Below, in pieces: positions 7,818 to 28,626 of a stretch of 31,111 nt of DNA. Both the position numbers and the translations under genes were made by a program. Source of the stretch: a virus. Its lineage: Duplodnaviria > Heunggongvirae > Uroviricota > Caudoviricetes. The DNA lies in IMG/VR virus record IMGVR_UViG_2563366800_000008, one strand, 5' to 3'. How positions within the stretch are numbered: the stretch's first letter is position 1; the number at the start of each line of letters is the position of its first letter. The notes beneath the pieces were generated by a model. It was not told the DNA's origin. It saw only the letters and a list, made by a program, of their open reading frames with translations, and did no database searches.

Positions 7818-8322
7818 GTTAATCCATGTTGCCCGTCGCAATCTACAACTGGACGATGACACCTACCGCTCTGTACTGATGCGAGTGACGGGAAAGCAAA
7901 GCTGTCGTGACCTGAGAGTCGGCCAACTGGAGGATGTGCTGAAGGTACTGGAGGATAAGGGTTTCATTCGTACCCGTCCCCGTTCTCCGGCTCGCCGTCA
8001 TCGTGAGACAGATATCACCGCAAAGGTCCGCAGCATCTGGCGGCAGATGCATCTTGATGGGTTTATCCGTGATGGCAGCGATACCTCACTCGATTCGTTC
8101 GTCGCGAAGATGACTGTCAGAACCAACAAAGGTAAAGGTATCGCCAGCCTGGCATGGTGCCGTGGCGATAATCTTCTGATGGTGCTGGAAAGCCTCAAGC
8201 AATGGCACCTGAGAGAAATGACAGAGGCGCTGAGTCCGCGAGACCTGGCATTTCAGGATAATCGGGGTTATGACGCCATCAACAGCCTGTATTCCAGTAA
8301 AGTAAGAAAGGTGCGCACATGA
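7795..8322 (+). CDS. gemA: GemA-like protein (Mu gp16 family)
   Basis: N-terminus MSRASLIKLIHVARRNLQLDDDTYRSVLMRVTGKQSCRDL resembles Mu GemA. ATG at 7795; the ORF-track start at 7750 is a TTG. Confidence 0.75.
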   Translation: MSRASLIKLIHVARRNLQLDDDTYRSVLMRVTGKQSCRDLRVGQLEDVLKVLEDKGFIRTRPRSPARRHRETDITAKVRSIWRQMHLDGFIRDGSDTSLDSFVAKMTVRTNKGKGIASLAWCRGDNLLMVLESLKQWHLREMTEALSPRDLAFQDNRGYDAINSLYSSKVRKVRT

Positions 8323-8726
8323 GCGAAAAGCAGAATGACCTGTTTGGTGATATCCAGGATGACAGCATTCTGGAGCACCTGGACGATGACAGTTCGGCGG
8401 AAACTGTGCGTTTCCCTGCACTGCTGACAGAACTGAATACGCTGTTGCGTGGCGAACTGACAAAGCATGGTGTTGACCCACGAATCTCTCTGGAGCTGGT
8501 CTATGCGATTAGCTGTCAGATTGGTGGAATGCAGATTTATTTTCCACGCGGCCAGACTCTTGAGTCATTGATTCGTGATATGAAAATCTGGCGTGATTTC
8601 AATGGCAGAAACATCACAGAGTTGGTTGAGCGTTACCGTGTTACCTATAAAACGGTGTATAAAGCAATCCGGAGAATGCGAAAGTTAGAGCAAGGTAAGA
8701 GGCAGCTCTCATTTAATATGGAGTGA
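8319..8726 (+). CDS. mor: Mor/C-family transcriptional activator
   Basis: 135-aa ORF; DLFGD..DD.IL.HLD...RFPALL.EL..LLRGEL and C-terminal HTH TVYKAIRRMR resemble Mu Mor. Start overlaps the gemA stop (ATGA). Confidence 0.85.
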   Translation: MSEKQNDLFGDIQDDSILEHLDDDSSAETVRFPALLTELNTLLRGELTKHGVDPRISLELVYAISCQIGGMQIYFPRGQTLESLIRDMKIWRDFNGRNITELVERYRVTYKTVYKAIRRMRKLEQGKRQLSFNME

Positions 8727-8730
8727 TAAT

Positions 8731-9054
8731 ATGGTTGGTGTGATTGTTATTAACATAGTTTGTATTATATGTGTTTTTTGGGTTTTCTTTGATGCTACTT
8801 CTAACAACATAGGAAGTTATGTTGTTAGAGACGGTGTGCGAAAAGGATGTCGCAGAGGCATACACCCTGTGGTTTGGGCTGCGCTGAGTATATTTATACT
8901 TCCTTTTATTTGGTATCTGATCAACAGGAAATCTTTATTGATCGCTGCGGAAGAATATCCAGTAAAGACTGATAAAAGCGTAAGTTTTATTATTCTACTT
9001 TTGTTGGTATCAGGATGGTTGCTCTATCGCTACAAAGATTATTTATTCTATTAA
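8731..9054 (+). CDS. Small hydrophobic membrane protein (about 3 predicted TM segments), AT-rich moron-like gene
   Basis: 107-aa ORF with visibly lower GC than its flanks and three hydrophobic stretches; followed by an intrinsic terminator. Occupies the position of C in Mu but is not a Mor/C homologue. Confidence 0.55.
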   Translation: MVGVIVINIVCIICVFWVFFDATSNNIGSYVVRDGVRKGCRRGIHPVVWAALSIFILPFIWYLINRKSLLIAAEEYPVKTDKSVSFIILLLLVSGWLLYRYKDYLFY

Positions 9055-9070
9055 GTTATAGCCAATACAA

Positions 9071-9086
9071 TGAAGCCGGTTAATCC
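9071..9086 (+). promoter_or_regulatory. Conserved motif TGAAGCCGGTTAATCC upstream of the lysis operon; candidate late-promoter activator site
   Basis: Identical 16-mer recurs at 17045-17060 upstream of the head gene; both copies lie 76-80 nt before the first ATG of an operon. Confidence 0.45.
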
Positions 9087-9097
9087 GGCTTTTTTTT
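9073..9097 (+). terminator. Rho-independent terminator
   Basis: Perfect inverted repeat AAGCCGG-TTAAT-CCGGCTT followed by a run of T residues. Confidence 0.7.
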
Positions 9098-9150
9098 CGT
9101 CCGGCACATGATGGAAGGGAAATCTAACCCACTTCCAAAGGTGCCGTTTT

Positions 9151-9741
9151 ATGAACAACACCCCCGATTCTCCCGCATTTCGCAATGCTCTTGCTTTCGT
9201 GCTCAGCGCAGAACGCGGATATGTCAATGACCCCACTGACCGTGGCGGTGAAACTAACTTCGGTATATCAGATAAACGCGACGGTGTTGCCGATGGCATG
9301 ACCGACGTTAATGGCGATGGCAAGCCTGATACTCGTATTCGTGATTTAACGGTTGAACAGGCCGGACAGATTTACTTCCGTGACTACTGGTATCCGGCGT
9401 ATTGCCAGTTATGGCCGGATGATATCGCCCTGTTTGTCTTTGATTCTGCCGTCCAGCATGGCGTCAAAAAGGCTGTCCAGTTGCTTCAGGAAGCTGTGGG
9501 TTTCACTGGCAAAAGCGTTGACGGTATCGCCGGTAAAAACACCCGTGCAGCCGTTGAGCGTGCTGACCCTGACTGGCTGCTGAACCGTTTGTTTCTGCAA
9601 CGTTCCCGCTATTACGCCGACATCATCAAAGCAAACTCTTCGCAGGGCAAGTTCCTCAACGGCTGGTTTAACCGCCTTGACAACCTCGCTGACGCCTGTC
9701 GTGAGATTTCCGGTGTCCGCTATTCGGTAGCCCGGAGCTGA
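9151..9741 (+). CDS. Endolysin, GH108-type lysozyme with C-terminal peptidoglycan-binding domain
   Basis: 196-aa ORF; N-terminal LSAERGYVNDPTDRGGETNFGI and C-terminal region VDGIAGKNTRAAVE fit the GH108 plus PG_binding_3 architecture as I recall it. Confidence 0.8.
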   Translation: MNNTPDSPAFRNALAFVLSAERGYVNDPTDRGGETNFGISDKRDGVADGMTDVNGDGKPDTRIRDLTVEQAGQIYFRDYWYPAYCQLWPDDIALFVFDSAVQHGVKKAVQLLQEAVGFTGKSVDGIAGKNTRAAVERADPDWLLNRLFLQRSRYYADIIKANSSQGKFLNGWFNRLDNLADACREISGVRYSVARS

Positions 9742-14562: not shown

Positions 14563-16130
14563 TGTTTAAACAACTAACCGGAGCCGTTCGCCGGCTGCTC
14601 AGTCCTGCCACGGGAGAAGTTGTCACCGTGAACAAGGATGAGCTGAAGCAGACGCAATCCGCAGCGGCGGTAATGAGTGTACGTTCCCCCTCGGCAGGTA
14701 TCAGCGTTGCCAGTACGCTGAGTCCCGGCAGGCTTGCGGGGATCTTACGTAATGCAGCCGATGGTCATGCCCGTGATTTCTTCATTATGGCGGAGGAACT
14801 GGAGGAACGTGACCTCCACTACGCCAGCGTTTTACGTACACGCAAGCTGACGGTTTCCGGGATTGAACCTTCAGTGGAGGCCGGGAGCGATTCCCCGCGG
14901 GATGTGGAAATCGCAGATGATATCCGTAACCTCATGGCGCAACCGCAGGTTCCCGAACTGCTGTTCGATTTGCTGGACGGGCTTGGTAAAGGCGTTGGTG
15001 TCTGCGAAATCCTCTGGAATACCAGCACCACACTCTGGAAACCCCGCGATTATGAATGGGTAGATCCACGTTTTCTGAAACCTGACCGGGAAACGCTGCG
15101 TGATTTCAGACTACTGACGGACAGGAACCCCATCGATGGTGAGCCATTGTCACCGGGGAAATTTATCGTCCATAAGCCCCGCCTGAAATCCGGTCTGCCC
15201 TTGCGTAACGGTCTGGCGCGTCTGGTGGCCGTCATGTATATGCTCAAGTCCTACACAGTCCGGGACTGGTGGGCGTTTGCTGAAAAATTTGGCATCCCGA
15301 TTGTGGTGGGTAAATACGGCAACAACGCCAGCCCGGAACAAATCCAGACATTGCTGGATGCGATTGCATCACTGGCATCAGATGCCGGCTGCGCAATCCC
15401 CGACTCGATGAAACTGGAGATGCAGGAAGCGGCGAGCCGTAACAGCGGTGGCACTCTCTTTAAAGAGATGGCCGAATGGTGTGACGCGCAGATTAGTAAG
15501 GCCGTACTGGGGCAGACCATGACCACGGATGACGGCAGTTCACGTGCTCAGGCGGAAGTCCACAATGGTGTGCGTATGGACATCGCCAAATGGGATGCCT
15601 GGCAGTTATCCAACACGCTGTCTGAATTCCTTGTTCGTCCCTATGTGGATATGAATTACGGACCACAGGAGCATTACCCCCGCGTCGTTCTGCGCATCAG
15701 CAAACCGGAAGATCTTAAGGTTCTGGTGGATGCACTGTCGCCGCTGATTGACCGGGGGATGGAAGTTCAGATGTCAGAGATCCGTGACAAATTCGGGCTG
15801 TCTGAACCGGAGAAAGGCGCAAAAATTCTGACACCAACGGCGCAAATGACTAACCCACTACCGGCCATGAACCGTGAGCAGACTGCGCTTAACCGCAGCC
15901 AGCCTGACGTTCTTGATATGATGGTGGATGAAGCGATGAATGACTGGCAGCGTACCGGCGATGCGTTCACCAGTCCGGTGCTTGAGCTGGCAAAGAAATC
16001 TGACAGCTTTGAATCTTTTCTTGCTGGCCTGCCGGCGCTTCAGAAAGAACTTGATGCGGATGAGTTTGCGACGCAGCTGGCGATGCTCTGTTTTAAAGCC
16101 CGGTCGCTGGGAGATGTAAACGATGGCTAA
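14562..16130 (+). CDS. Portal protein (Mu gp29 family)
   Basis: 522-aa ORF immediately after the terminase; size and position match the Mu portal. Confidence 0.85.
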   Translation: MFKQLTGAVRRLLSPATGEVVTVNKDELKQTQSAAAVMSVRSPSAGISVASTLSPGRLAGILRNAADGHARDFFIMAEELEERDLHYASVLRTRKLTVSGIEPSVEAGSDSPRDVEIADDIRNLMAQPQVPELLFDLLDGLGKGVGVCEILWNTSTTLWKPRDYEWVDPRFLKPDRETLRDFRLLTDRNPIDGEPLSPGKFIVHKPRLKSGLPLRNGLARLVAVMYMLKSYTVRDWWAFAEKFGIPIVVGKYGNNASPEQIQTLLDAIASLASDAGCAIPDSMKLEMQEAASRNSGGTLFKEMAEWCDAQISKAVLGQTMTTDDGSSRAQAEVHNGVRMDIAKWDAWQLSNTLSEFLVRPYVDMNYGPQEHYPRVVLRISKPEDLKVLVDALSPLIDRGMEVQMSEIRDKFGLSEPEKGAKILTPTAQMTNPLPAMNREQTALNRSQPDVLDMMVDEAMNDWQRTGDAFTSPVLELAKKSDSFESFLAGLPALQKELDADEFATQLAMLCFKARSLGDVNDG

Positions 16131-16917
16131 GCCGGTCAGCGATAAATACAGCATTATTCCCCAGGAAGCACTGGCCTGGCTGAAGGCGAAAAAGCTGAAG
16201 CCGGGATTTGATTACCGCGATGTCTGGATGGAAGAACACAGCATCGGCTTTACTGTGGCAAAGATGACGCAGCTTGATTTGCTGGCGGACGTTCGCCAGC
16301 TCGTGGAGGACGCACTGGAGAGCGGCCAGACCTTTGAGCAATTTCGCGAGGTTCTTAAACCTATGCTGGTCAAACGTGGATGGTGGGGACAGCAACTGAT
16401 GGATGATCCACTGACCGGTGAAACCCGTACTGTCCAGCTCGGCAGTGACCGCCGGATGCGCGTTATCTACGACACCAACATGCGGACAGCCCGCGCGGCG
16501 GGACAATGGCAGCGTATTGAACGGACCCAACGGGCAATGCCTTATCTTGTCTACACCGTCGGCCCCTCACGTGAGCACCGTGCGGAGCATCTGCGCTGGA
16601 AGGATGTCTGCCTGCCGGTGGATCATCCGTTCTGGCGAACACACATGGGGCCGAACGGCTGGGGATGCAAATGCGGTACACGGCAAATCAGCCGGTATGA
16701 GTATGAGCAGATGAAGGCCAACGGCACTATCAACACGGAAGCCCCTGAAGTGCGTACGGTCAGATGGGTTAACAAACGCACCGGCGAAGAAGAGACCATT
16801 CCGGAGGGGATTGATCCCGGCTGGGCGTACAACCCCGGAATCTCCCGCAGTCGCGAGCTGGATGAACAGCTACGCAGAAAACAGGACGCGTTTGACAGTC
16901 ATTCGCCACAAAGATAA
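16123..16917 (+). CDS. Head morphogenesis protein (Mu F-like)
   Basis: 264-aa ORF after the portal, the position of Mu F. Confidence 0.7.
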   Translation: MAKPVSDKYSIIPQEALAWLKAKKLKPGFDYRDVWMEEHSIGFTVAKMTQLDLLADVRQLVEDALESGQTFEQFREVLKPMLVKRGWWGQQLMDDPLTGETRTVQLGSDRRMRVIYDTNMRTARAAGQWQRIERTQRAMPYLVYTVGPSREHRAEHLRWKDVCLPVDHPFWRTHMGPNGWGCKCGTRQISRYEYEQMKANGTINTEAPEVRTVRWVNKRTGEEETIPEGIDPGWAYNPGISRSRELDEQLRRKQDAFDSHSPQR

Positions 16918-16958
16918 AAACCATCCCACAACGCGCGTGGCGGCATTAACGATTATTA

Positions 16959-17060
16959 CGTCATGACGGCACGTGAAAAAATCGTTAAACGCGCCACAGC
17001 GTTTTTAAACGTGTTTTAAACGCGGTTTCATGCCGCGTTTACAGTGAAGCCGGTTAATCC
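16959..17060 (+). promoter_or_regulatory. Head-operon upstream regulatory array: palindromes, 9-mer repeats and the shared 16-mer
   Basis: Palindrome CGTCATGACG (16959-16968), CACGTG (16970-16975), three direct TTAAACGYG copies (16985, 17005, 17016) and one inverted copy forming a 9-bp stem (17017-17041), then TGAAGCCGGTTAATCC (17045-17060), 61 nt before the protease/scaffold ATG. Confidence 0.5.
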
Positions 17061-17120
17061 ACCTGCATCCCCGTTCCCCCCCACACTGTCCGGAAGTAAA
17101 CAACGTGACCGGACAACACC

Positions 17121-18077
17121 ATGAACCCGAACAATACGGAACTGCTGGCGCTCTGCTTTCAGCTTCCTGACCTTACCGATGATGCATTGCCGGAATGGCT
17201 GCCGATGATACCGGCGGGAACCTTTACAGGGCGTGATGGCCGTTCGTGGGTGAACAACAATCCGGAAGCCATCATTCGTGCCTCGATGGCTTATCCAAAG
17301 CTCCCGTTTGATATCGAGCACTCTACCGAACTGAAAGGCCCGAAAGGCGATGAAGCCCCGGCTTATGGCTGGATTGACGGCTATCGCGTCAGTGATGGCG
17401 TGGTGGAGGCGCACGTTGAATGGACTGATGACGGCATGGCGCAGCTGCGCGGCAAGAAGTACCTCTATTACAGTCCGGCCTTTCGGTTCACTGCGGACGG
17501 TCAGGTCACCCGCCTGTCCAGCGCCGCGCTGACCAACAAACCCAACCTTGATTTACCCGCACTCAACTCTGAGGAAAACACGATGACCGTACCTGTCCAG
17601 ATTGTGACAGTGCTTGGCCTCGCGGCCACTGCCACAGCAGACGACGCAGTAAAAGCCATTCAGCAGATTAAGACCGCCGAGCAGGTGGCGCTTAACCGCG
17701 CTGAGAATCCTGACCTGACGAAGTTCATTCCGGTAGAGACCCACCAGTTAGCACTTAACCGTGCGGAAAGCGCTGAAAACAAACTCAATGAGATTGCCAT
17801 CAAAGAATCAGAAGCACTGGTGGACAGCGCCATTGAGTCGGGGAAAGTCGCACCGGCCAACCGAGAAATGTATCTCGCCACCTGCCGCTCTGAAGAGGGC
17901 CGAAAGCGGTTTGCTGAATTCGTGAAAGCGGCACCGGTCATTGTCAGCAAGACCACGACGACCAAAAAAGAAGGCACCGAAGGTCATGCCTCGCTTTCTG
18001 ACGAAGACCTCGCGATGTGCCGCCATATGGGCATCAGCGAAGAAGAATTCCTTTCCGTTCGTAAGCAGGAGAAATAA
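17121..18077 (+). CDS. Head maturation protease / scaffold (Mu I family)
   Basis: 318-aa ORF directly upstream of the major head gene; N-terminal protease-like region and Ala/Glu-rich helical C-terminal region as in Mu gpI. Confidence 0.8.
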   Translation: MNPNNTELLALCFQLPDLTDDALPEWLPMIPAGTFTGRDGRSWVNNNPEAIIRASMAYPKLPFDIEHSTELKGPKGDEAPAYGWIDGYRVSDGVVEAHVEWTDDGMAQLRGKKYLYYSPAFRFTADGQVTRLSSAALTNKPNLDLPALNSEENTMTVPVQIVTVLGLAATATADDAVKAIQQIKTAEQVALNRAENPDLTKFIPVETHQLALNRAESAENKLNEIAIKESEALVDSAIESGKVAPANREMYLATCRSEEGRKRFAEFVKAAPVIVSKTTTTKKEGTEGHASLSDEDLAMCRHMGISEEEFLSVRKQEK

Positions 18078-18080
18078 TTC

Positions 18081-18974
18081 ATGCAGGTATCCGCAGAAGT
18101 GTTGCATGCCCTGACCACCGCACTGAGCGCCGCCTTTACCAAAGGTGTTGGTCGGGTCAATCCGCAGTATCGATCCATCGCCACGGTCATCCCCAGTTCC
18201 GGCGCGTCTAACACTTATGGCTGGGTTGAAGACTTCCCGACCATCAAAGAATGGATCGGGGCGCGTCAGCTGAAAGAACTGGCTCAGGCCGGGTATGTCA
18301 TTACCAACAAGACCTGGGAAAACTCGGTCAAGGTCAAGCGCGAAAAAATCGAGGACGATCAGATTGGTCAGTATTCCGTGATTGCTGAGCAGCTTGGCCG
18401 CGATACCACGATTTTCCCGGACAAGCTGTCGTTTGAGTTGCTGTGCAAAGGCTTCGATACGCTGTGCTGGGACGGTCAGTATTTCTTCGATACTGATCAC
18501 CCTGTTGGTACATCCACCAAATCGAACGTTGTGGGCGACCCGGCGACCGATACGGGTGAGCCGTGGTTCCTGATTGATGCAACGCATGCGCTGCTGCCCA
18601 TCATTTACCAGGAGCGCCGTCCGTTTAACTTCATCGCCCTTGATGATCTCACCAGTGAGCGTGTGTTCCTTCAGAACGAATTCGCCTACGGGACCGATGG
18701 CCGCAGCAACGTTGGCTTTGGTTTCTGGCAGACCTGTGTGGGGTCAAAAGCAGCACTGAACAAAGCGAACTATGAAGCCGCTGTCTCCGCAATGATGGGT
18801 ATCACGGACTCTAACGGCGAACCTCTGGGCATGAATCCGACATTGCTGGTCGTCGGTAAGAACAACCGTGGTGCGGCCAAGGCGCTGATTGAAGCGGTTA
18901 CGGCTGATGGTGGTGGTTCAAACATCTATTACAAGGATGTTGACCTGCTGGTCTCACCTTACGTCAAAGCATGA
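18081..18974 (+). CDS. Major head subunit (Mu T family)
   Basis: 297-aa ORF after the protease/scaffold; size and position match Mu gpT. Confidence 0.85.
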   Translation: MQVSAEVLHALTTALSAAFTKGVGRVNPQYRSIATVIPSSGASNTYGWVEDFPTIKEWIGARQLKELAQAGYVITNKTWENSVKVKREKIEDDQIGQYSVIAEQLGRDTTIFPDKLSFELLCKGFDTLCWDGQYFFDTDHPVGTSTKSNVVGDPATDTGEPWFLIDATHALLPIIYQERRPFNFIALDDLTSERVFLQNEFAYGTDGRSNVGFGFWQTCVGSKAALNKANYEAAVSAMMGITDSNGEPLGMNPTLLVVGKNNRGAAKALIEAVTADGGGSNIYYKDVDLLVSPYVKA

Positions 18975-19008
18975 CGTCATTACGTAAAAAATCACGTAAT
19001 GCCGGATT

Positions 19009-19029
19009 AAGGAGGGGTTAACCCTCCTT
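19009..19029 (+). other. Stem-loop after the major head gene, possible attenuator
   Basis: AAGGAGGG (19009-19016) pairs with CCCTCCTT (19022-19029) around a GTTAA loop; only a short T run follows. Preceded by inverted repeat CATTACGT/ACGTAATG (18978-19001). Confidence 0.4.
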
Positions 19030-19057
19030 TAAACCCAACCTGAATGAGGTTTAAAAA

Positions 19058-27002: not shown

Positions 27003-28093
27003 TGGAAATGGTTGTGCTTGAGGTTGACGGCCAGCAGTGGGACGGATGGACAGAGATGTCCATCACTTCCTCACTGGAGGCTGTTGCCGGCGAATTTGAT
27101 CTCACTGTCACCACACAATGGTCAGAAGCATCACCACGCGTGATTAAGCAGGGCATGCCCTGCATCGTCAGGCTGGGAAAAGATACGGTTCTGACGGGGT
27201 ATATTGATGATTTCATTCCCAGCTATGACGCAGAAAACATGAGTATTCGCGTTATGGGGCGGGATAAAACCGGCGATCTCGTTGACAGCTCAGTGGTGCA
27301 TAAATCCGGCCAGTGGAAAGGTGTTCGACTGGAGCAACTGGCAGTGGAAATCTGCAAACCCTATGGCATCAGTGTTATCAGTGAAACTGACACTGGTGAA
27401 ACCTTCGGTAGCGTGGTGCTTGAACAGGGAGAGACCGCCTTCGATCTTCTTGACCGCCTGGCTAAACAACGCGGCGTTCTGCTGACTGCTGATGGTCTGG
27501 GTAATCTGATCATCACCCGTGCATCAACAAAGCGTGCCGGCGTTCCTCTGATTTTCGGGACCAATATTCTTGCAGCCCGCGGCCGGTTCAGCTGGCGTGA
27601 GAGAAACAGCCAGTACATCGTGAAAGGCACCTCCAGTGCGGGTGGGAGCACGTGGGACGATCAGCCAGTCAAAGTGATTGGAGGACGTCAGACCATCGTT
27701 GATGATGGTGACATCAACCGTTACCGCCCGAAAATTCTGGTCAATGAAGACAGCCTGACCGTCGGAGGCGCAAGTACACGCGGTGAATGGTACAAAGCGC
27801 GGATGATGGGCGAAGCCAACAGCACCGAAATTACACTGGCAGGATGGCGAGAGAATGGCGATGAAGGCCCGTTATGGCAGAAAAACAGGCGCGTTGATAT
27901 TGATGACCCGGTACAGAACCTGAAGGACTCATGGCTGATTAAAACCGTCACGTTTACTGAAGGTGATAACGGACGTCTCTGCGTTCTGACGCTGGTTCCC
28001 CCTGAGTCGATGGATATGCCTGAAACCAGTGCGAAAAAAGCAGGCAAGAAAGGCAAGAGATCAAAGGCAAAAACGGAGGAAACATGGGACTGA
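26999..28093 (+). CDS. Baseplate hub / tail protein (Mu P family, gpD-like)
   Basis: 364-aa ORF in the Mu P position, with a basic Lys-rich C-terminal tail. Confidence 0.75.
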   Translation: MMEMVVLEVDGQQWDGWTEMSITSSLEAVAGEFDLTVTTQWSEASPRVIKQGMPCIVRLGKDTVLTGYIDDFIPSYDAENMSIRVMGRDKTGDLVDSSVVHKSGQWKGVRLEQLAVEICKPYGISVISETDTGETFGSVVLEQGETAFDLLDRLAKQRGVLLTADGLGNLIITRASTKRAGVPLIFGTNILAARGRFSWRERNSQYIVKGTSSAGGSTWDDQPVKVIGGRQTIVDDGDINRYRPKILVNEDSLTVGGASTRGEWYKARMMGEANSTEITLAGWRENGDEGPLWQKNRRVDIDDPVQNLKDSWLIKTVTFTEGDNGRLCVLTLVPPESMDMPETSAKKAGKKGKRSKAKTEETWD

Positions 28094-28626
28094 ATCCGGC
28101 AAATATCGGTCGCACACTTGAAGGTATTGGACGCCGGCTGCGATTGCTCGTTGACAGGGCCGTTGTTCGTATCGTTACAGACAGTCTCGGGCGTCAGAAC
28201 CTCCAGATCCAGTCTCTGGCGGATTCCACCAATGATGATGTTGAACGTTTCCAGAACTACGGCCTGACGTCTGTGCCGCCAGTCGGTTCAGAAGCACTCA
28301 TTCTGGCAGTGGGGGGACGCCGGGAAGGTCTGGTGGCAATCGCTGTTGAAGACAAGCGCTGTCGTCCAAAAGGTCTGGAGGATGGAGAGGTCAGGTTATA
28401 TCACGGCGATGGTCAGTCTTATATCACCCTGAAAAAAGGTGGTCTTATCGACGTTAAAGGGAAATCGGTTAATTACGATGCCGGCGAATTGTTTGCGATA
28501 AATACAAAATTATTAAAAGTTAACGGCCCATCTGTATTTTCAAATGATATTCAGGTCGCCGGTAAATCTGTTCTTGAGCATTTCCATATGGACGGGGATG
28601 GCAAAAAAACATCGGAGATGAAATGA
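28084..28626 (+). CDS. Baseplate assembly protein V-like (spike)
   Basis: 180-aa ORF in the conserved baseplate order. Confidence 0.7.
   Translation: MGLNPANIGRTLEGIGRRLRLLVDRAVVRIVTDSLGRQNLQIQSLADSTNDDVERFQNYGLTSVPPVGSEALILAVGGRREGLVAIAVEDKRCRPKGLEDGEVRLYHGDGQSYITLKKGGLIDVKGKSVNYDAGELFAINTKLLKVNGPSVFSNDIQVAGKSVLEHFHMDGDGKKTSEMK

Follow-up and report, generated by a model that had tools for sequence, protein, structure and literature searches.

A probable central gyrase site and Mor-type late promoter upstream of the head protease gene in a Mu-like prophage of E. coli

The 203-bp gap between the stop of the head morphogenesis gene F (16917) and the start of the head protease gene I (17121) in a Mu-like prophage of E. 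coli probably combines a central strong gyrase-binding site (SGS) with a Mor-activated late promoter for the head genes. Coordinates refer, unless Mu is named, to the analysed stretch of 31,111 nucleotides (the window). The initial annotation had read the gap, with its palindromes and TTAAACGYG repeats, as a multi-input control point at the entry to the capsid genes, served by an activator together with another DNA-binding factor or an RNA-level element. [quoted passage not shown] The SGS and the Mor-type promoter are both known kinds of element, and most likely no new control device is present.

[quoted passage not shown] By analogy with Mu, supercoiling from the centre would help bring the phage ends together, and the paired ends would lead to transpososome assembly and prompt replicative transposition after induction; the array would serve this process rather than head-gene control. 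Positions 17043-17094 would form a late promoter of the Pm type (P_I), with a Mor box at about -51 to -36, no -35 and a weak -10, switched on by the phage's single Mor orthologue, which would likewise drive the lysis promoter at 9069-9112. In Mu itself the SGS is needed for prompt replication, central gyrase action promoting end synapsis, the genome centre is its optimal position, and function requires the right arm but not the left (PMC10052514, PMC6379681, PMC13284261). The repeat motifs of the Mu right arm bend DNA around the GyrA pinwheel and present the T-segment (PMC10052514, PMC13284261, PMC6379681). Since most other gyrase sites tested failed to replace the Mu SGS (review, PMC10052514), resemblance does not guarantee gyrase function. 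What the sequences themselves show is homology, phasing, conservation and position; gyrase binding and cleavage, a part in replication, the transcript start and Mor dependence are predictions built on these.

Prophage and genomic setting

The window belongs to a Mu-like transposable prophage of about 32 kb, and matches a prophage of E. coli ECONIH4 at 100% identity, where the element interrupts a lambdoid tail-assembly gene. Its ends lie at approximately L001 5236-40081, as judged by eye from the junction sequence, and an IS66 insertion of about 2.5 kb lies within it near the right end, so that the phage proper measures about 32.4 kb. This prophage type is present in 5 of 5,426 complete E. coli genomes. 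A 231-bp query covering the gap region finds one place per genome, always in this prophage and in those five genomes only, a distribution that does not fit a dispersed repeat such as a REP/BIME or MITE.

From the left, the gene order runs from a repressor-like and a ner-like gene to A- and B-sized transposition genes, the last two being inferred from ORF sizes and PGAP names (transposase-domain protein, AAA ATPase). Rightward follow a Gam-family host-nuclease inhibitor (PGAP name), GemA, one Mor-family activator and a GH108 endolysin, after which come the structural genes for terminase, the Mu-type portal, F, I (protease), T (major head) and the contractile tail; GemA, Mor, the Mu-type portal, F, I and T all have Pfam matches. 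The gap is flanked on the plus strand by a gene for a Mu F-like head morphogenesis protein (16123-16917; Pfam Phage_Mu_F, E=5.8e-13, and PGAP annotation of the identical prophage) and by the head protease/scaffold gene I (17121-18077; Pfam Mu-like_Pro, E=3.3e-47). The gap lies at about 49% of the prophage and the predicted gyrase site at 48.6% of the IS-free length of about 32.4 kb. As gene order is conserved in Mu-like phages, this central position is weak independent evidence.

Sequence features of the gap

The palindromes, TTAAACGYG copies, stem and 16-mer described by the initial annotation are all present where it placed them. TTAAACGYG occurs four times in the whole window, and three of these are direct plus-strand copies in a 40-bp stretch inside the gap (16985, 17005 and 17016), against a shuffle expectation of 0.40 for the whole window on both strands; none of 100 shuffled sequences reached four. 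An inverted copy had also been described, and here the stem holds, its 9-bp arms (17017-17025 and 17033-17041) pairing perfectly, but the 9-mer pattern itself is matched at only 8 of 9 positions. The 16-mer TGAAGCCGGTTAATCC (17045-17060) has its sole other exact copy at 9071-9086, and three places in the window match it with at most three mismatches where 0.29 are expected.

The palindromes CGTCATGACG (16959-16968) and CACGTG (16970-16975), by contrast, are of kinds that occur at chance frequency (25 perfect 10-bp palindromes in the window, with about 30 expected, and eight copies of CACGTG), and conservation of these two already fails in the nearest E. coli variant. Both are lineage-specific and lie on the predicted cleavage core. 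This core is also the centre of an imperfect dyad of 61 bp (16937-16997), our predicted gyrase G-segment, whose 21-nt arms (16937-16957 and 16977-16997) are complementary at 17 of 21 positions around a 19-nt centre, with its axis of symmetry at base 16967. It is the only inverted repeat of its class in the window, and none of five shuffles yielded one. The 48 bp from 16999 to 17046 hold the strongest A/T periodicity of 10-11.3 bp in the 31 kb. The initial annotation had overlooked both the dyad and this periodicity.

Two other assignments of the repeats were rejected. Transposase end-type sites can be set aside, as both the repeat and the shared block are absent from the left end of the prophage, and the only other TTAAACGCG in the window, at 60-68, lies outside the prophage. 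Nor is an IHF site indicated, the sequence AATCGTTAAACGC failing, when compared by eye, to fit WATCAR-N4-TTR.

[quoted passage not shown]

The Mu GenBank record marks a "gyrase cut site" at 17879/17880, in a 196-bp gap upstream of I and at 48.7% of the genome. Its right arm has a clear counterpart in the window at 16976-17044 (plus strand), an assignment that draws on Mu homology, periodicity, gyrase register and conservation. The arm comprises in order an A6T tract (16976-16982), the repeats TTAAACGCG (16985), TTAAACGTG (17005) and again TTAAACGCG (17016), a TTTCAT tract (17026) and the inverted copy CCGCGTTTA (17033-17041), all on the plus strand. When window block 16983-17027 (TCGTTAAACGCGCCACAGCGTTTTTAAACGTGTTTTAAACGCGGT) is compared with the whole of Mu on either strand, the best ungapped match, at 32 of 45 positions, is Mu 17894-17938 (TTTTAAAACGCGCCACGGGATTTTTAAACCGGTATTTAACGGTGT), that is +18 to +62 of the SGS; the next best place scores 26 and none of 300 shuffled queries exceeds 29. 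Searched in turn against the window, the Mu block returns 16983, again with 32 of 45 (next best 25, shuffled maximum 28). Ungapped genome-wide matching was used here in place of semi-global gapped identity of short blocks, for which the null was inflated; a blastn search with the Mu SGS did not find the site in the window. As the I proteins of Mu and the window are only 26% identical, this noncoding block is better kept than the genes that flank it.

Gyrase register and predicted cleavage

When the 133-bp Mu SGS fragment is set against the 133-bp gyrase consensus (PMC6379681), the central 4 bp in Mu fall at 17876-17879, and an ungapped transfer of this register to the window puts the corresponding 4 bp at 16965-16968. 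The A/T tracts of the arm, phased at about 10.5-11 bp, share the register of Mu and of the E. coli gyrase cleavage motif established by Topo-Seq (Sutormin et al. 2019, PMC6379681). Read by eye from the sequences and counted from the predicted cleavage centre, the tract centres lie at about +17 to +22, +31, +40, +52, +63 and +75 in the window, at +19.5, +31, +40.5, +52.5 and +64 in Mu, and at +20.5, +31, +40, +51 and +62.5 in the Topo-Seq consensus. By strength of A/T periodicity the window arm ranks first in the window, and the Mu right arm, taken as a control, ranks fourth in Mu.

A composition-normalised phase correlation, which compares the S/W pattern from +12 to +66 with the consensus sequence rather than with a weight matrix, ranks the Mu SGS control 46th of 73,154 at its correct register. 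In the window the same measure ranks 16966 as position 0 fourth of 61,942, and 16967 seventh. The carried-over Mu register, the phase correlation and the dyad centre at 16967 therefore converge on a cleavage centre at 16965-16969, where we predict a 4-bp staggered cut, good to 1-2 bp, the dyad centre falling no more than 1 bp from the position that the other two lines predict. A pseudo-matrix of matches to the 133-bp Topo-Seq consensus was dropped, as the genuine Mu SGS came out only around rank 841 of 73,000, and the best phase score in the gap of each relative was excluded from the evidence because, as a maximum over about 390 positions, it is biased.

The register is common to the two phages but the core is not. 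The cleavage cores, ATAAAATCAGCC in Mu, CATGACGGCAC in the window and TACGATGATTC in the Klebsiella type, vary among relatives, that of the window being unalignable with that of Mu, and left arm and core fit the gyrase consensus poorly in the window as they do in Mu.

Conservation in related prophages

A megablast search of the region against phage records gave no match, and relatives were collected by tblastn and pattern scan. Ranked by I protein, the nearest phages are Klebsiella phage Kp4866-3 (65%), Shewanella MuM16-2 (50%) and Vibrio phages (47-49%), to which a scan of bacterial genomes added 64 further loci. In relatives an A-tract and then three TTTAAAC or TTTGAAC units, at spacings of 20 and 11 bp, directly follow F; this array is found before I in relatives from Klebsiella, Raoultella, Kluyvera, Pluralibacter, Trabulsiella, Vibrio, Photobacterium and Shewanella. 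Of 68 loci, 33, among them loci from Rhodobacterales, Desulfobulbus and gut Alphaproteobacteria, carry TT[TAG]AA pairs at a spacing of 10-12 bp upstream of I, where the density is 2.67 per kb compared with 0.23 per kb elsewhere in the loci. The comparison with related phages that the initial annotation had suggested thus found the TTAAACGYG repeats kept, across host genera. The array is also central in four related phage genomes, at 48-51% of their length, in part as a consequence of the conserved order of genes.

The core and left side have drifted. Both palindromes are missing in the Klebsiella, Raoultella and Kluyvera relatives, the Klebsiella type having TACGATGATTCTCTG in their place, and the 61-bp dyad is not conserved in Klebsiella-type relatives. 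The same division is evident among E. coli variants, in which the right arm is invariant and the core variable: in the ECONIH5 prophage, 96.5% identical, both palindromes are broken and four of seven substitutions in the gap fall within 16957-16975, with 16976-17065 unchanged. A right-arm array that is kept while the core and left side drift is what the experimental dissection of the Mu SGS would predict. Indirect readout alone would hardly seem to call for conservation of the exact TTTAAAC heptamer as tight as that observed.

These patterns bear on an alternative in which the TTAAACGYG copies are sites for a sequence-specific phage or host protein that co-regulates the head promoter with the activator. 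Such a protein could account for a TTTAAAC heptamer that is almost exact across distant hosts, for the block AAACGCGCCAC common to the window and Mu, and for an array that adjoins the Mor box. We nevertheless consider it unlikely, as the homologous Mu segment is known from experiment to be the SGS right arm, on which gyrase action and Mu replication depend (PMC10052514, PMC13284261), and as the swap of TTTAAAC for TTTGAAC in Klebsiella relatives, with phase kept, fits bendability better than a base-specific reading. Furthermore, mutations in Mu Pm upstream of -57 have no effect on promoter activity (PMC4390567), and no candidate binding protein is known.

Alongside the SGS reading we would also entertain, as an improbable proposal, that the array goes beyond passive, bendable wrapping: that its bases are read specifically by a conserved factor, of phage or host origin, with a role in loading or regulating gyrase, or that gyrase occupancy of the arm is mechanically coupled to the Mor-dependent head promoter, the end of the arm lying about 11 bp before the Mor box in this phage. 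This proposal draws on the near-exact conservation of TTTAAAC and of AAACGCGC-CAC from Mu to Vibrio, Shewanella and 67%-GC Rhodobacterales prophages. Mechanical coupling, if true, would link replication state to late gene expression.

A probable Mor-type late promoter

The I-proximal end of the gap carries a Mor box, AGTGAAGCCGGTTAAT, on the plus strand at 17043-17058, which the shared 16-mer of the initial annotation (17045-17060) overlaps. Written as AGTGA-AGCCGG-TTAAT, it is a 16-bp dyad with 5-bp inverted repeats and a G/C-rich hexamer between them. The Mor site of Mu Pm is likewise described as a 16-bp element, from -51 to -36, with 5-bp inverted repeats and a G/C-rich hexamer, and Pm has G at -57 and A at -54 (PMC4390567, PMC4287176). 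In Mu 9120-9250 the sole sequence that fits this published description is 9173-9188 (AGTAAAGCCGGTTAAT, or AGTAA-AGCCGG-TTAAT), which we infer to be the Pm Mor site, placed from the verbal description and not from a printed sequence. This placement would imply a -10 of TATCCT and a start at Mu 9224. The window box matches it at 15 of 16 positions.

Downstream of the box, and beginning 23 bp after it, is a weak candidate -10 hexamer, CACACT (17082-17087, plus strand), which would place the P_I transcript start near 17094. The homologous hexamer in relatives is CATACT, GACACT or CATGCT, with A2 and T6 kept. A standard sigma-70 scan found no plus-strand promoter at the gap. The Mor box before I is conserved in relatives, and Klebsiella phage Kp4866-3 has the same box both after mor and before I.

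The window has a second putative Mor-type promoter on the plus strand before the lysis genes (9069-9112). Its box, AATGAAGCCGGTTAAT (9069-9084), matches the Mu box at 14 of 16 positions and is overlapped by a hairpin with a T-run, AAGCCGGTTAATCCGGCTTTTTTTT (9073-9097; -12.6 kcal/mol), and a -10 candidate, CATGAT (9107-9112), begins 22 bp after it. Over 24 bp the window copy at 9071 is identical to the mor-E18 intergenic (Pm) region of Mu, AGTAAAGCCGGTTAATCCGGCTTTTTTTACGTCC. The distance from box to -10 is 23 bp at P_I and 22 bp at both the window lysis promoter and Mu Pm.

The cognate activator is encoded at 8319-8726 (plus strand; Pfam Mor, E=1.8e-30), by the only gene of the Mor/C family annotated in the prophage, which has no C gene. 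Its product shares 63% identity with Mu Mor and 35% with Mu C. A Mor-type box, -10-like hexamers at suitable spacing and a lone Mor orthologue together indicate that the gap probably ends in a Mor-type late promoter, and it is the overlap of the 16-mer with this box and the correctly spaced hexamer that support the activator site proposed earlier. Judged by its genes and boxes, the regulatory cascade of this phage appears to have two steps and no C protein.

The adjacency of arm and promoter also raises the possibility that the array is curved, UP-element-like DNA that boosts the late promoter and has no role with gyrase. Phased A/T tracts do lie directly upstream of the Mor box, and in Mu Pm the Mor site is immediately preceded by a proximal UP subsite (PMC4390567). 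The array, however, extends to about -118 relative to the predicted start, much further than an UP element would, its register matches the gyrase motif, and the Mu arm is conserved yet lies more than 100 bp upstream of the apparent C-dependent P_I region. We regard this explanation as very unlikely and retain the SGS right arm as the preferred reading of the array.

RNA-level features

The inverted repeats could instead act in RNA, for instance by terminating or processing the upstream lysis/head transcript so that it stops short of I. The gap folds better than shuffled sequences (z=-3.9), the hairpin at 17017-17041 has a predicted energy of -14.7 kcal/mol, and the lys and I transcripts of Mu are separate, all of which would suit such a role. 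Against it, the hairpin is followed by TTTACAG and not by a U-run, there is no intrinsic terminator on the plus strand in 16700-17300, and in the same interval Rfam 15 gives no match at E<=1 on either strand. In relatives, pairs of the 9-bp hairpin are broken with no compensatory changes and the consensus folds at -4.2 kcal/mol, and, as noted above, the 61-bp dyad is not conserved. With neither an Rfam match, nor a plus-strand terminator, nor covariation in the hairpin, the suggestion of an RNA element is not borne out, and we find this reading very unlikely.

A different inverted repeat, TGTCCGG...CCGGACA (17088-17115, plus strand), is conserved. It spans the predicted start and the 5' leader of gene I, with invariant arms, a variable loop and one compensatory change from T-A to G-C.

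Implications

The proposed assignment, if correct, gives a concrete function to an intergenic gap of 200 bp that had no annotation in a clinical E. coli prophage, and extends the Mu SGS to a divergent lineage in which the right-arm signal is all that is common with Mu. Among the parts of the SGS, selection would then have preserved the TTTAAAC array with its phasing and register, together with the AAACGCGCCAC block, and not the core or left arm. The parts kept and lost match the experimental dissection in Mu, and such prophages would offer natural variants for studying how gyrase chooses its sites. A simpler regulatory cascade is also indicated, in which Mor would act directly on late promoters with no C protein. 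Current understanding is left unchanged by these assignments, which amount to tidy annotation rather than surprise.

Comparison with known systems

The closest known counterpart of the gap is the Mu SGS. Both sites occupy an intergenic gap upstream of I at the genome centre, with the right arm on the I side. Both have three TTAAAC-type repeats, spaced by 21 and 12 bp in Mu and by 20 and 11 bp in the window, and both contain the blocks AAACGCGCCAC and TTTTTAAAC, with the same A/T phase relative to the cut site. They differ in their cleavage cores, in the distance from cut to activator box, which is about 75 bp in the window and well over 100 bp in Mu, and in the gene on the upstream side. The window gap follows F where that of Mu follows G, as the G-like gene sits further downstream.

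SGS-like sequences at the centre of Mu-like prophages were reportedly described by Oram and Pato in 2004, and that of Sp18 in E. coli O157 Sakai is said to be the one functional replacement of the Mu SGS. The window is likewise a Mu-like prophage with a candidate central gyrase site. It also shares with the Topo-Seq motif of E. coli gyrase a periodic alternation of G/C and A/T of about 10.75 bp over +20 to +66, with which the window arm is in register.

On the promoter side, the two window promoters most resemble Mu Pm (Artsimovitch & Howe 1996; PMC4390567), to which P_I is related by its 15 of 16 box, its lack of a -35 and a -10 that lies 22-23 bp downstream, and by a Mor orthologue with nearly two-thirds of its residues identical. 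Pm, however, drives the middle operon encoding C, whereas the window boxes precede the late lysis and head operons, and the window copy before I lacks the second hairpin arm and T-run. In position the predicted promoter corresponds rather to Mu P_I, being immediately upstream of I and downstream of the SGS and serving transcription of the head genes, with the difference that Mu uses a C-type box and C protein at this place where the window has a Mor-type box and no C gene.

Results and discussion

Units of TTTAA or TTAAA, recurring at intervals of about 11 bp, also lie 5' of gene I in distant Mu-like prophages, an example being GCGCCGTTAAATACCATTTAAAGGGCC. The loci that carry them are from Rhodobacterales of about 67% GC (L023, L024, L026, L044, L056 and L065) and from gut Alphaproteobacteria (L052, L057 and L059), together with L029, L043 and L050. 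Two of the gut loci, L057 and L059, further have CAAAACGCGCACA, which resembles AAACGCGCCAC, a sequence common to Mu and the window. The repeat element upstream of gene I looks ancient and widespread in the Mu-like phage group. In the window, an inverted repeat, TGTCCGG...CCGGACA (17088-17115), covers the predicted transcript start and the leader of gene I. Among enterobacterial relatives its arms are invariant and the loop varies in both sequence and length, with one compensatory change, T-A to G-C. The repeat could act as an operator or form a hairpin in the leader.

Of the seven substitutions that separate the window from the ECONIH5 prophage (L072) in the gap before gene I, four fall within 19 bp (16957-16975), at the core where gyrase cleavage is predicted; the adjoining 90 bp are invariant between the two. 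This cluster may stem from weaker constraint, or from mutagenesis acting locally at a cleavage site. In the ECONIH4 locus that holds the prophage in full (L001), a lambdoid prophage has the Mu-like prophage inserted within one of its tail-assembly genes, with TATGGAT at both junctions (L001 5229-5235 and 40082-40088). An IS66 element (about L001 35513-38002) in turn interrupts a tail-fibre assembly gene of the Mu-like prophage. The putative strong gyrase site lies at 48.6% of prophage length, a position that shifts to 45.1% when IS66 is counted.

A second strongly phased A/T region (18975-19057) is found in the gap 3' of the major head gene T. When the 61,942 window positions are ranked by correlation with the phase of the gyrase right arm, the top rank falls here, with position 0 at 18968, and for 64-bp A/T periodicity 18975-19038 is rank 2 in the window; in Mu the post-T gap is likewise rank 2, for 48-bp periodicity. 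The region has a palindrome, ATGACGTCAT, at 18971 and a hairpin, AAGGAGGG-GTTAA-CCCTCCTT, and its reverse complement resembles 16941-16968 with a local score of 27, where shuffles reach at most 26. This stretch may be another gyrase site or a terminator region, or may have arisen by chance.

Inside a baseplate gene (28084-28626) there is a weaker site resembling the Mor box, AGGGAAATCGGTTAAT (28458-28473, three mismatches), with an A/T-rich -10-like stretch about 23 bp 3' of it. The equivalent position in the Klebsiella phage Kp4866-3 (27153) reads AGGGAAGACGGTAAAT; conservation of the site is confounded by the coding sequence. The site is a candidate third late promoter, which would be analogous to P_P of Mu.

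An A/T-rich ORF of 107 aa (8731-9054) separates the Mor gene from the lysis promoter. It has no Pfam match, its composition is markedly unlike its surroundings and its product looks hydrophobic; it is possibly an acquired moron. The stretch 8319-9150 holds the single Mor/C-family activator gene of the whole prophage (L001), which has no C gene, and a Mor-type box stands directly 5' of the lysis genes (9069-9084) and of gene I (17043-17058). Together these features imply a cascade that passes from early genes through Mor directly to late genes, and so has two tiers, whereas that of Mu has three.
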